A DNA stretch of 5,758 nucleotides from Candidatus Aenigmatarchaeota archaeon (GTDB lineage Archaea; Aenigmatarchaeota; Aenigmatarchaeia; GW2011-AR5; JACRAC01): contig JBDRFU010000063.1 in the NCBI GenBank assembly GCA_043818435.1, positions 1 through 5,758 of the forward strand, read 5' to 3'. How positions within the stretch are numbered: position 1 is the first letter of the stretch; each line of letters begins with the position of its first letter. The translations under genes were made by a program, and so were the position numbers. Of the stretch, positions 1-2,110 are shown piece by piece. The notes below the pieces were generated by a model, which was given only the letters and a program-made list of their open reading frames with translations, was not told where the DNA came from and did no database searches.

Positions 1-250
1 CGGACTCTGCGCATGTACGGAAACCAACACACCAACATCATCTGCATTATATCCATACTCAGGCTTATCGTAGCCGATCTCCTTTATTGTATTTCTGACA
101 ATATTTTGTATATCAATCCCAGCCTTTGTAGTAACCTCACCAGCAACAACAACAAGACCAGTCGTGACAAGTGTCTCAATAGCAACTCTTGATTCCTTAT
201 CCTGTTTATACAATTCATCCAGAATCGCATCAGAAATCTGGTCACACACT
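1..250 (-). CDS. metK: S-adenosylmethionine synthetase (bacterial/eukaryal MetK type), proposed exon 2; truncated at the window edge
   Basis: Minus-strand translation from 249 down to 1 gives [83 protein letters not shown]. This is collinear with the well-known MetK N-domain (E. coli ...[40 protein letters not shown]...[28 protein letters not shown]). A250 is the third base of the split Lys codon. The frame is closed just upstream by UGA at 252-250, so it cannot be read through from the N-terminal piece. Confidence 0.9.
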
Positions 251-281
251 CAAGACACCTTTGAATGATCATTCAAAGATT
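251..281 (-). other. Putative 31-nt bulge-helix-bulge (BHB) mini-intron in the metK mRNA
   Basis: Hand fold of the minus-sense RNA. Inner helix h': A280-U257, U279.G258, C278-G259, U277-A260, U276-A261, U275-A262, G274-C263, A273-U264, A272-U265, U271-A266, loop GAUC. First 3-nt bulge: A283 A282 A281. Central 4-bp helix: G287.U253, G286-C254, A285-U255, C284-G256. Second 3-nt bulge, on the opposite strand: U252 G251 A250. Outer helix: C288-G249, C289xU248 mismatch, C290-G247, A291-U246, C292-G245. Cleavage after the 2nd nucleotide of each bulge removes 281..251 (31 nt). The joined sequence is GAC AAA GUG UGU GAC CAG = DKVCDQ, which is in frame. The exact junction is ambiguous within the A-run 280-283. 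Confidence 0.6.
259..278. repeat. Perfect 20-bp palindrome CTTTGAATGA|TCATTCAAAG (core of the intron hairpin)
   Basis: Direct reading: plus strand 259-278 equals its own reverse complement. In the RNA it forms an 8-bp stem plus GAUC loop. The in-frame UGA (271-269) that terminates the unspliced exon-1 frame sits at the apex. Confidence 0.95.
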
Positions 282-343
282 TTGTCCGGGTGACCTTCTG
301 TAACACTCTCTGATGTAAACAGAAAATTTCCACGCCGCATCAT
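282..343 (-). CDS. metK: S-adenosylmethionine synthetase, proposed exon 1 (N-terminal 20 codons plus 2 nt)
   Basis: Minus strand ATG ATG CGG... (343-341 and 340-338 are in-frame ATGs) encodes [21 protein letters not shown], the invariant MetK N-terminus (consensus LFTSESVxEGHPDK). If unspliced, the frame continues IFE and stops at UGA 271-269. The start overlaps the stop of the upstream LAGLIDADG ORF (ATGA, 343-340). A GGAGGTG Shine-Dalgarno-like motif lies at 361-355, with rather long spacing to the start. Confidence 0.85.
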
Positions 344-1218
344 ATATTCTCTTGCACCTCCATTTTATTCAAATTATTACTGAAATTTGCAAACTTTCTT
401 TTCAAATAAATGCGGGAATCTTTATAAATCCAATGGGCCAAACACTTACCTCTGGTACAAGAAAACTGCAGACCAAAGGTATTAGAATGTATTCTTCTAC
501 ACCTAGATTTCACGCCAATATGATTGAAAATCACCTTGCTCAATTTCTTCAAAAATCTTTCTGAACCAGAACATATGGAAATCTCAAAATACGGACTCCT
601 TCGTCTATTAACATACCGAACAGTACCATCGCCATCAATAATACCACGAATGAAATGCCTGACATGATCACTCCTAGTTATATTTTCAGGAAACCTCACA
701 ATCATCGATTTTCTAGGAACAACACCTAAATCTATTAACTTCCGACACAATATCTTGCTTGCAACAATAAGACGATAAGAATTGGTATTCTTAGAATATA
801 ATAAAGGTTTTGTACTTCCCATGAGTCCTCTTATTTTTTCCAGGTGAGCTTTGTCCTTGGATGAAGCAGTTATCGTGAGAGACCAATATGACCTACTAGG
901 ATTCCAAGTCACATTACCATCAGCGAAGATGAAACCTAAGATATAAGATGATTCTTCATTGGGATTATCAAAGAACTCTTCATTTACAATATGTTTAATT
1001 GGATGAAAACCAAACTCATCAACACACCACCTGTTCACTGCTGTCTTACCAATACCAAGTTTTCGCGCCATTTCTCGTTGGGATAGTTTGCCCATGTTAG
1101 ATTCTAAGAATTTCAACATTTCTTTCTTTTTATCAGAACTTATTATTATTCCCATAGTATTATTTATATTATGATCACTTAAATATGATGGATGGCCCTC
1201 AAGAAACTCATTCAGCAT
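340..1218 (-). CDS. Free-standing double-motif LAGLIDADG homing endonuclease with an N-terminal helix-turn-helix extension (292 aa)
   Basis: Two LAGLIDADG motifs are present. [11 protein letters not shown] is at aa 92-102 (nt 945-913) and [11 protein letters not shown] at aa 189-199 (nt 654-622), about 97 aa apart, as in monomeric two-domain enzymes. The motif [13 protein letters not shown] is typical of intein/archaeal-type LAGLIDADG domains. An HTH-like segment [21 protein letters not shown] lies at aa 44-64. ATG is at 1218-1216, preceded by AGGTGA (1228-1223) with 4 nt spacing. No Hint/intein splicing blocks flank the ORF. Confidence 0.9.
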
Positions 1219-1226
1219 AAACTCAC

Positions 1227-1520
1227 CTACAACACAATATCATATACCCGATCTCTCTTAACAAGTATCTCACTTTCACCAAATATCTCAGGATATATTT
1301 CTTTCAACAACTCCACGGCAATAGTTCCATGATTATCCGAATAAGAACACGATTTAAACTCGATCCCACTTATTTTTCCTCCACTATTCGGTCTCCATGT
1401 TTGAAACCCATCAAAACCCGAGTTTACTCCGCCAGGATGATACATTACTTTTTTATTACTTCTCATACTATCACTCACCATATTTACCAACAATACTATA
1501 AGAAGACTAGTCATATCCAT
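1227..1520 (-). CDS. Hypothetical 97-aa protein with an N-terminal hydrophobic segment (possible signal or anchor); no family recognised
   Basis: An open frame is the only strong evidence. I prefer ATG at 1520-1518 (MDMTSLLIVLLVNMVS...). The TTG at 1586 used by the ORF track would abut the divergent gene's ATG and remove the promoter region. Its stop TAG (1229-1227) overlaps the SD of the downstream endonuclease gene, which suggests co-transcription. No motif could be assigned to a known family. Confidence 0.4.
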   Translation of the reverse strand: MDMTSLLIVLLVNMVSDSMRSNKKVMYHPGGVNSGFDGFQTWRPNSGGKISGIEFKSCSYSDNHGTIAVELLKEIYPEIFGESEILVKRDRVYDIVL

Positions 1521-1585
1521 ATGCAGATATTCATAAAAATATGCGTATATTAATAGTTTTCTACGATAAGGAATTAGGGTAAACA
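1521..1585. promoter_or_regulatory. AT-rich divergent intergenic region with TATA-like boxes (putative bidirectional archaeal promoter)
   Basis: This 65-bp region lies between the minus-strand ATG (1520) and the plus-strand ATG (1586). ATAAAAATAT (1533-1542) and TATATTAATA (1546-1555) are TATA-box-like. The second is centred about 35 nt upstream of the plus-strand ATG and about 30 nt upstream of the minus-strand ATG, consistent with short-leader or leaderless archaeal transcripts. No transcription start site data are available. Confidence 0.4.
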
Positions 1586-2110
1586 ATGTTTGATATTAGA
1601 AAACTGAAAGAGATACGAAAAAAACAAGGGATAACTCAGAATGAACTAGCCAAACGCTCAGAAGTCAGTCAATCTCTCATAACCAGGATAGAAAATGGTG
1701 AAGTTGACCCATGTTATAGCAAGGTCCAACGCATAATAAACGCACTAGAACAGACATCTAAAGGAAAGATCGAAGAAATCATGACAAAAAAAATCATCGC
1801 TGTAAAACCTTCTGATGAAATAAAAAAGGCCATACGCATAATGAGGAAACGAGGAATATCTCAATTACCTGTCATAGAAAACGATAAAATTATAGGAACT
1901 GTATCCGAGACCGGAGCATCTACCATAATTCAACACAGATCATTAAAATACGTCAGAGAAATAATAGAACCCTCATTACCTACAATGGACAAGAATAGTT
2001 CGATCCAATCGTGCAACGAGCTTCTCAAACACTGTCCAGCTATCATAATCACAAACAATGGCAAGCTATGCGGCATAGTAACAAAAGCCAATCTATTGAA
2101 GTTGATCTAA
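1586..2110 (+). CDS. Transcriptional regulator with an N-terminal XRE/Cro-type HTH and a C-terminal CBS-domain pair (174 aa)
   Basis: The N-terminus LKEIRKKQGITQNELAKRSEVSQSLITRIENGEVDP is a classic XRE HTH. Two CBS repeats follow: IMTKKIIAVKPSDEIKKAIRIMRKRGISQLPVIENDKIIGTVSE and IIEPSLPTMDKNSSIQSCNELLKHCPAIIITNNGKLCGIVTKANLLK. Its stop TAA (2108-2110) overlaps the next ATG (2110-2112). Confidence 0.85.
   Translation: MFDIRKLKEIRKKQGITQNELAKRSEVSQSLITRIENGEVDPCYSKVQRIINALEQTSKGKIEEIMTKKIIAVKPSDEIKKAIRIMRKRGISQLPVIENDKIIGTVSETGASTIIQHRSLKYVREIIEPSLPTMDKNSSIQSCNELLKHCPAIIITNNGKLCGIVTKANLLKLI

Follow-up and report, generated by a model that had tools for sequence, protein, structure and literature searches.

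How does an archaeon make S-adenosylmethionine (SAM) synthetase, MetK, from a gene whose reading frame closes after two dozen codons? The question is raised by metK in a 5,758-nt contig (the window; GenBank JBDRFU010000063.1) of a metagenome-assembled genome (MAG) of Candidatus Aenigmatarchaeota, in the archaeal superphylum DPANN. On the minus strand, metK starts at ATG 343-341, with a second ATG at 340-338, and encodes 24 amino acids before an in-frame UGA at 271-269. The continuation of the protein sits in a different frame, with a closing UGA at 252-250 and an opening GUG at 248-246; the remaining genes of the window are intact. Removal of 281..251 (31 nt) gives ...GAC AAA GUG UGU GAC CAG... 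and recovers GHPDKVCDQISD, with the motif GHPDKVCDQ. Deletion of 280..250 yields the identical product, because 281 and 250 are both A. The spliced product of 104 residues spans positions 1-99 of 99 of the Pfam profile PF00438 (S-AdoMet_synt_N; E = 4.9e-45). An earlier note on this DNA had described the break at UGA 271-269, the 31 extra nucleotides and their in-frame excision; all of its coordinates were verified, and reading frame, motif and complete N-terminal domain are regained as it proposed. The insert is very probably real, a conserved intron of the tRNA type, and we put at roughly 85% the probability that it is an archaeal bulge-helix-bulge (BHB) intron, of a relaxed kind, in the pre-mRNA of a bacterial-type metK. 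The gene would then be divided as follows.

282..343, minus strand: metK exon 1, from ATG 343-341 to the second Lys base (AA) of GHPDK; 20 amino acids plus AA.
251..281, minus strand: predicted 31-nt BHB-type intron, AAUCUUUGAAUGAUCAUUCAAAGGUGUCUUG; its removal recovers frame and motif, and homologous inserts lie at the same codon position.
1..250, minus strand: metK exon 2, partial (it leaves the window), opening with the third base (A) of the Lys codon.

The joined exons are predicted to read ...CCGGACAA|AGUGUGUGAC... across the junction, without 281-251.

The next question is what in the transcript could mark these 31 nt for removal. The predicted fold consists of the elements below.

257..280, minus strand: inner intron hairpin, a 10-bp helix (280-271 with 266-257, one G-U) with loop 270-267.
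284..287, minus strand: 5' strand GGAC of the central 4-bp helix (third Pro base plus Asp codon), pairing with 253-256.
253..256, minus strand: 3' strand GUCU of the central 4-bp helix, intronic; one G-U in the helix.
281..283, minus strand: 3-nt 5' bulge AAA, with the predicted cut between 282 and 281 (register per PMC12397907).
250..252, minus strand: 3' splice-site trinucleotide UGA, with the predicted cut between 251 and 250; within a larger internal loop in most alleles.
290..295, minus strand: 5' strand GGUCAC of the distal exon-exon helix (Gly-His codons), pairing with 240-245.
240..245, minus strand: 3' strand GUGACC of the distal exon-exon helix (Cys-Asp-Gln codons), pairing with 290-295.

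The 10-bp inner helix, AAA bulge, 4-bp central helix and UGA bulge of the earlier note were each found where it had placed them. It had also proposed an outer helix, 292-288/249-245, and four of its five pairs can indeed form in the window. In the RNAfold centroid of 302-235, the inner helix, the central helix and the AAA bulge are recovered, but the outer pairing is 295-290/245-240 (GGUCAC/GUGACC, six perfect bp) and not 292-288/249-245, and the minimum free energy (MFE) structure differs as well. The segment has z = -2.88, with 2 of 200 shuffles equally good. Rfam, searched at permissive E-values, returned only sub-threshold noise for the window, and ARAGORN found no tRNA in it.

Is the insert peculiar to this contig? 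We scanned one genome per prokaryotic species with a degenerate exon-gap-exon pattern and obtained 14 split-metK loci, all in archaeal MAGs; no bacterial genome matched, although bacteria dominate the collection and bacterial-type MetK is ubiquitous among them. The 14 loci are labelled Aenigmatarchaeota, Woesearchaeota, Micrarchaeota or Nanoarchaeota/Nanoarchaeia, some only 'archaeon' or 'Methanosarcinales', and are mostly DPANN. A complementary pattern, run over metagenome contigs, gave 23 loci, 17 of them with split metK. The other six were discarded: five are chance matches outside MetK, and one (L026:4091-4158, PDVJ01003935.1) is a tandem duplication in which a 35-nt unsplit metK segment, CACCCCGACAAACTGTGCGATCAGATCTCTGATGA, occurs twice and mimics a split gene. 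Two further alleles (L041 and L046) came from contig look-ups, and the distinct alleles number 31 in all. In every one of them, across independent assemblies, an insert of 29-32 nt lies after the second Lys base of GHPDK. The 5' bulge AAA is invariant, the central helix has four valid pairs in each allele and its 3' strand ends exactly 6 nt before the Cys codon, while the 3' trinucleotide is always NNA, with the third base A completing the Lys codon.

Some candidates from these searches were set aside. Truncated MetK proteins on Nitrososphaeria-like contigs (P0060, P0061 and P0075) first seemed split and were rejected, the long contigs being noisy assemblies full of fragmented genes (CDC48, CobA, CbiD). 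Three contigs of 114-483 kb (L001-L003, ERZ250395xx) are Nitrososphaeria-like, with Rad51-LSM-metK synteny and with many genes, among them CDC48, CobA, CbiD and metK, in fragments; they look like error-rich long-read assemblies, and their broken metK is not an intron. The idea of a dispersed repeat resembling a miniature inverted-repeat transposable element was also dropped, since the only matches to intron sequences elsewhere in 363 kb are chance ones of 12-14 nt. A scan of 35 related loci for intron-bearing tRNAs was empty, since the loci contained no tRNA genes. As to the labels, three loci titled 'uncultured Methanosarcinales archaeon' (L004, L012 and L014) have MetK, HTH-CBS (a helix-turn-helix plus CBS-domain gene) and LAGLIDADG products that group with Nanoarchaeota/Woesearchaeota, the MetK call of L014 being 84% identical to that of the Nanoarchaeia locus L013, and their labels look doubtful.

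Evidence that the fold itself is maintained comes from covariation, counted on a MAFFT alignment (A1) of 29 distinct alleles. A structure made up of the distal outer helix, the central helix, the 3-nt bulge and the inner helix has 96.2% of its cells paired and 11 pairs with compensatory change, a score reached by none of 500 column shuffles, while control structures with a slid register are 29-45% paired. The earlier note had suggested looking for compensatory helix changes, and these were found in all nine aligned pairs of the inner helix (94.2% of cells paired) and in both variable pairs of the central helix, which is 100% paired. Each of the two variable central pairs joins a synonymous codon position in the exon to a base of the intron: Pro codon position 3 and its partner form GC in 12 alleles, GU in 8, AU in 7 and UA in 2, and Asp codon position 3 and its partner form UA in 12, CG in 9 and UG in 8. 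It is this coupling of synonymous codon positions to intron bases that makes the comparative evidence unusually clean. The distal helix, 290-295/240-245, is 96.6% paired across alleles, and no covariation is possible there because its sequence is fixed by coding. When no structure was supplied, RNAalifold arrived at the same architecture, with 10 covarying pairs. Judged from this alignment, the conserved motif is an inner helix, a 3-nt bulge, a 4-bp helix, a looser 3' loop and a coding-constrained distal helix, which corresponds to a relaxed BHB.

Several points weigh against reading the insert as a BHB intron. In most alleles the 3' splice site lies outside a canonical 3-nt bulge flanked by two helices. 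The helix adjoining the 3' bulge, 292-288/249-245, is specific to the subgroup of the window, is 57.9% paired in the 29 alleles and has one pair that never forms; conservation is seen instead in the closing helix, 4 nt further out. The description of the motif as near-canonical therefore has to be given up for its 3' side, and the outer helix proposed with it, possible as it is in the window, is not conserved. Both the 4-bp central helix and the helix-flanked 3-nt 5' bulge of an archaeal BHB intron are present, while the 3' site falls outside the strict hBHBh' form and inside the relaxed (BHL/HBh'-type) definition, so that cleavage there would rely on an endonuclease of relaxed specificity. 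The MFE structure of the window favours a competing third local pairing; on the alignment this pairing is 45-52% paired without compensation, and we rejected it as not conserved. When an inner helix of 6 bp or longer is required, a loose BHB descriptor finds about 37 matches in each shuffled window; when 9 bp or longer is required, it finds 2.2. The fold alone is thus not beyond chance and was not used as evidence; what is beyond chance is a fold that coincides with an exact frame break and covaries across genomes. Finally, the scans catch only alleles with conserved flanking codons and a gap of 16-46 nt, so the distribution is a lower bound and biased.

How would the insert leave the message? 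In the transcript, the third Pro base and the Asp codon (GGAC) would pair with the intronic GUCU to form the 4-bp central helix, with the Lys-codon AAA bulging on the 5' side and the 10-bp intron hairpin stacking beyond. The 3' splice site would lie within the UGA that follows the central helix, and the distal helix between the Gly-His and Cys-Asp-Gln codons would close the structure. The splicing event and its enzymes are what we infer from these features: the splicing endonuclease EndA would cut after the second nucleotide on each side, and an RtcB-type ligase would join the exons into ...GAC AAA GUG UGU... (GHPDKVCDQ), releasing the 31-nt intron. In the ARMAN-2 endonuclease-RNA structure, the scissile phosphate is on the third bulge nucleotide and a 2'-deoxy substitution at the second blocks cleavage, which places the cut after the second bulge nucleotide (PMC12397907) and agrees with the register given in the earlier note. 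Some archaeal endonucleases also act on relaxed motifs (PMC12397907, PMC5829648, PMC2738675), the bulge-helix-loop form among them (PMC12397907). DPANN endonucleases are of the alpha4, (alpha-beta)2 and epsilon2 types, many with an L3 loop associated with disrupted tRNA genes, and their loops have been linked to a broad substrate range (PMC5829648).

That the insert is excised from RNA, only not by EndA, is the first alternative to consider. Some other structure-specific nuclease and ligase might do this, or a factor linked to the LAGLIDADG homing-endonuclease-like gene that lies upstream of metK in the window. LAGLIDADG proteins can serve as group I intron maturases, and the 3' site does deviate from the strict BHB. 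We nevertheless regard this as improbable: a 4-bp helix, a 3-nt bulge and a cut after the second nucleotide are exactly the signature of EndA, most intron-bearing alleles have no LAGLIDADG gene, and an RNA of 31 nt is too small to self-splice.

Could translation cope with the insert instead? By length, five alleles have inserts of phase 0, 16 of phase 1 and 10 of phase 2. Each of the five in-frame inserts is interrupted by a stop, and in 21 of the 26 out-of-frame alleles, the window included, the frame of exon 1 has already closed upstream of the last stop in the frame of exon 2, which leaves no place for a single frameshift to join the two. Neither frameshifting nor read-through nor ribosome hopping works for most alleles. 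Hopping deserves a closer look, since the gap is short, holds a stable hairpin and comes with early in-frame stops, and ribosomes might take off at the Lys codon and skip it without any RNA processing, as on phage T4 gene 60. An AAA matching the take-off codon directly precedes the resume codon in 11 of the 31 alleles; the other 20, including the window (UGA), have no matching landing codon. Bypass would also leave unexplained why the central helix covaries with exon codon positions and why the 3-nt offsets are fixed, and split genes occur only in archaeal genomes, with none in bacteria despite a collection dominated by them. We consider it very unlikely.

It is also conceivable that the insert is never removed, leaving either a metK pseudogene or a 24-residue peptide plus an N-truncated MetK that starts at the GUG or AUG before the Cys codon, with SAM supplied by another enzyme or by a host. 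Gene callers do output truncated proteins that begin MCDQISD..., and DPANN archaea are metabolically reduced. The state of the gene speaks otherwise. Excision by the BHB rule gives complete, stop-terminated MetK open reading frames (ORFs) of 385-436 amino acids in 11 of the 14 genome loci (of the other three, two leave the fetched DNA and one meets a masked run of N), and cutting after the second bulge nucleotide regains GHPDKxCDQ in 31 of 31 alleles. Ten exon 1 codons compared in 29 alleles show just one amino-acid change amid many synonymous substitutions, TCN/AGY switches of serine codons among them. On this comparison exon 1 is under purifying selection, which implies that it is translated within MetK. 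GHPDK, a part of the catalytic site, does not vary among the MetK proteins compared; in many alleles Cys is preceded by AUU, AUC, AUA or UUA, none a usual start, and the RNA helices covary. The further frameshifts of a pseudogene, named in the earlier note as a possible refutation, were not borne out, as the rest of metK is intact in the intron-bearing genomes. We consider an unspliced gene very unlikely. An assembly, amplification or sequencing artefact, such as the chimera that the earlier note had also considered, is suggested by the short (5.76 kb) MAG contig and by error-ridden related assemblies (L001-L003) and can practically be dismissed, given that 31 distinct alleles, from separate projects and different assemblers, have the insert at the same position, diverged in sequence and conserved in structure, and that the genes around it in the window are intact.

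If the insert is a BHB intron, how is it distributed? We used the spliced MetK of the Nanoarchaeia locus L013 as a query against 5.8 billion proteins and examined the 120 closest relatives, which are 73-100% identical and named Woesearchaeota or Nanoarchaeota. The N-terminus is uninterrupted in 116 of them and four start at MCDQISD, one of these being the gene call of L013 itself. Homologous metK alleles with and without the intron, for which the earlier note had advised a check, thus both exist, and on these numbers the intron is a minority state, patchy and optional. Two loci from the same project, L041:1-1817 with the intron and L042:3957-5773 without it, show 0 differences over 1,713 nt from the Cys codon on, while 12 of 57 exon 1 positions differ, as do all three bases of the codon after Lys; the intron-less site of L042 reads GGTCACCCAGATAAGATCTGTGACCAGAT. 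Judged from this pair, a recombination or conversion-like boundary falls no more than 4 nt from the 3' splice site. With lower confidence than the intron itself, we suggest that the intron is a recently exchanged DNA-level element, probably spread or maintained with the free-standing LAGLIDADG gene upstream.

340..1218, minus strand: free-standing LAGLIDADG homing-endonuclease-like gene with an N-terminal helix-turn-helix (HTH); PF14528; its TGA overlaps the metK ATG.

What is this neighbour? Its product matches PF14528 with E = 4.3e-12 and 46.5 bits (cut-off 22.5 bits) and is 100% identical to MFH1631232.1, 'LAGLIDADG family homing endonuclease [Candidatus Aenigmatarchaeota archaeon]'. Homologues at 51-63% identity fall into 363 clusters. 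The acidic motifs xADGN and IDGDG are kept in 7 of 7 aligned homologues and are present in 104 and 117, respectively, of 120 family members; with the profile matches, these residues give the protein the two LAGLIDADG motifs of a homing endonuclease. The closest solved structure is PDB 2dch ('putative homing endonuclease'; E = 3.4e-7), which we take to be an archaeal rRNA-intron enzyme. The gene lies directly upstream of metK, in the same orientation, in every context examined. It sits between HTH-CBS and metK in the window and in L012, L013, L018, L019, L032 and L046-L050, and is absent from L004, L014, L017, L031 and L042-L045, where metK directly adjoins HTH-CBS or a small ORF; it is, in other words, an optional gene at a fixed position, polymorphic for presence and absence. 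Intron-less relatives lack it and have the conserved HTH-CBS gene, divergently oriented, about 200 nt from metK. Upstream ORFs of 259-356 amino acids in some loci were considered as divergent LAGLIDADG proteins and rejected as unrelated genes.

The LAGLIDADG search, which made no use of the intron pattern, led to eight alleles. Five of them carry the intron, compared with 4 of 120 in the background (Fisher p = 2.5e-5). The remaining three are L048, P0361 and P0333, the last apparently intron-less as judged without DNA. In L048:3900-3990 (GCA_028279705.1, JANQNF010000078.1), the LAGLIDADG-adjacent metK is intron-less and has one extra T 7 nt upstream of the insertion point (GGG CAT CCT T GAC AAG TTG TGT), creating CCU UGA C. 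For the extra T, an assembly error is possible, as are a scar of repair or a resistance mutation in a putative nuclease target and a +1 frameshift site like those of RF2 and antizyme. In P0361 (662 amino acids; in the cluster of P0268; five contigs of up to 45.8 kb), the LAGLIDADG ORF runs in frame into an intron-less MetK with the junction variant GHPDKIADQIAD, which has Ala for Cys and Ala for Ser. The nuclease gene can therefore adjoin an uninterrupted metK when the site sequence differs.

A tentative explanation, to which we give somewhat less than even odds, is collaborative homing in archaeal chromosomes, with the mini-intron and the free-standing upstream LAGLIDADG gene acting as one unit. 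The putative nuclease would cut intron-less metK DNA at the conserved coding site GHPDK|xCDQ, a BHB intron of 29-32 nt would split the cut site and so protect its carrier, and repair would copy nuclease gene, exon 1 and intron into the recipient. The signs of such cleavage are indirect: the conversion-like boundary at the intron, and the excess of interrupted or altered junctions beside the gene. Against such a link stand the many intron-bearing alleles without the LAGLIDADG gene and at least one LAGLIDADG-adjacent metK that is intron-less (P0361). If true, collaborative homing would explain how BHB introns enter mRNAs, and the presence/absence polymorphism with its LAGLIDADG neighbour offers a handle on the gain of protein-spliced introns by mRNAs.

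How does the proposed metK intron compare with known systems? Watanabe is said to have described an intron in the cbf5 pre-mRNA of Crenarchaeota in 2002. In a later study (Yokobori 2009, PMC2738675), the cbf5 introns of Desulfurococcales and Sulfolobales resemble that of metK in being short, within the coding sequence and marked by a BHB-like, often relaxed motif; they are cut by the tRNA-splicing endonuclease, and both introns are patchy, with gain and loss in cbf5. The metK intron differs in its host gene, where it falls inside the GHPDK motif, in its superphylum (DPANN) and in being known here from sequence comparison alone. Its LAGLIDADG neighbour and conversion-like boundary point to DNA mobility, of which the accessible part of the cbf5 report holds no mention. 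The Haloferax volcanii HVO_1309 mRNA (Schwarz 2020, PMC7714728; PMC10485636) is likewise a substrate of the archaeal splicing endonuclease with BHB sites, as we propose for metK. Unlike in metK, its intron lies in the 5' untranslated region (UTR) and breaks no reading frame, in a euryarchaeal host with an enzyme of strict specificity. The only endonuclease-spliced mRNAs that reviews name are cbf5 and HVO_1309, the latter for its 5' UTR intron, and further cases are expected (PMC10485636, PMC7714728). The statement in the earlier note that such introns are documented essentially only for cbf5 hence holds for coding sequences and misses a second processed mRNA. Our literature search on metK, MAT or SAM synthetase with BHB motifs or introns in archaea or DPANN found nothing relevant, which is in line with the expectation of the earlier note that a metK mRNA intron would be new.

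BHB introns in rRNA often carry LAGLIDADG genes. Archaeal tRNA and rRNA BHB introns have, like that of metK, a central helix of 4 bp and a 3-nt bulge, and their cut behind the second bulge nucleotide (PMC12397907) is the one predicted for metK. The metK intron differs in having an mRNA host, in being only 29-32 nt long and in having the endonuclease gene outside it, about 60 nt upstream. A parallel for the neighbouring gene is in a cyanophage: both F-CphI/psbA and the metK locus have a free-standing homing-endonuclease gene beside a conserved gene, with an endonuclease-less intron at the putative target. Zeng reportedly described F-CphI and the psbA intron of cyanophage S-PM2 in 2009. Collaborative homing was defined for this pair, a free-standing endonuclease and a group I intron (PMC6083498). 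There the intron would guard against self-cleavage and the nuclease would give mobility, roles that in metK are both putative; F-CphI/psbA also differs in its self-splicing group I intron, phage host and Endo VII-like nuclease. The splicing of HAC1/XBP1, a regulated eukaryotic stress response, uses IRE1 plus RtcB or Trl1. As proposed for metK, protein enzymes remove a short, frame-changing mRNA intron independently of the spliceosome in this unconventional mRNA splicing (mentioned in PMC13149111), with a different nuclease and different recognition hairpins, in eukaryotes and under regulation.

Should the intron be confirmed, metK would be the second archaeal coding sequence with a BHB intron after cbf5, here in DPANN and in a gene of central metabolism; a 2023 review anticipates further endonuclease-processed mRNAs beyond cbf5 and HVO_1309 (PMC10485636). 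It would provide a testable natural substrate for the relaxed-specificity endonucleases of DPANN, and alignment A1 could seed a search model for similar introns. There is also a consequence for annotation. Pipelines emit MetK without GHPDK, as in P0121, P0139, P0152 and P0156 (calls from L013, L046/L047, L014 and L041), which start at the post-intron GUG or AUG, and SAM synthesis in DPANN may be mis-scored. In L047 and four other clusters, the LAGLIDADG ORF call runs through metK exon 1 and stops inside the intron.

Further observations concern the surroundings of metK. The interval from HTH-CBS to metK is an insertion hot spot (window 1227-1586, minus strand; L013:5141-5521; L046:710-3335), holding a 119-residue ORF without a Pfam match in the window, a 126-residue ORF in L013, and in L046 a PIN-domain gene with a small upstream ORF plus a 479-residue ORF. 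A conserved small ORF with the motif YGLRIAAEYGGNNG occurs at L004:984-1355 (123 amino acids), where it abuts metK, and at L018:908-1324 (138 amino acids), where the LAGLIDADG gene intervenes; the comparison therefore marks the exact insertion point of the LAGLIDADG gene. On the plus strand of the window (2011-2110), a metallophosphoesterase ORF called from GTG 2011 overlaps the HTH-CBS gene by 100 nt. Its conserved part starts at a Met near 2110 (MKFLTDYPAM...), and the true start probably abuts the CBS stop. The block of Lhr helicase, phosphoesterase and HTH-CBS recurs beside metK in L022/L023, L029, L033 and L036.

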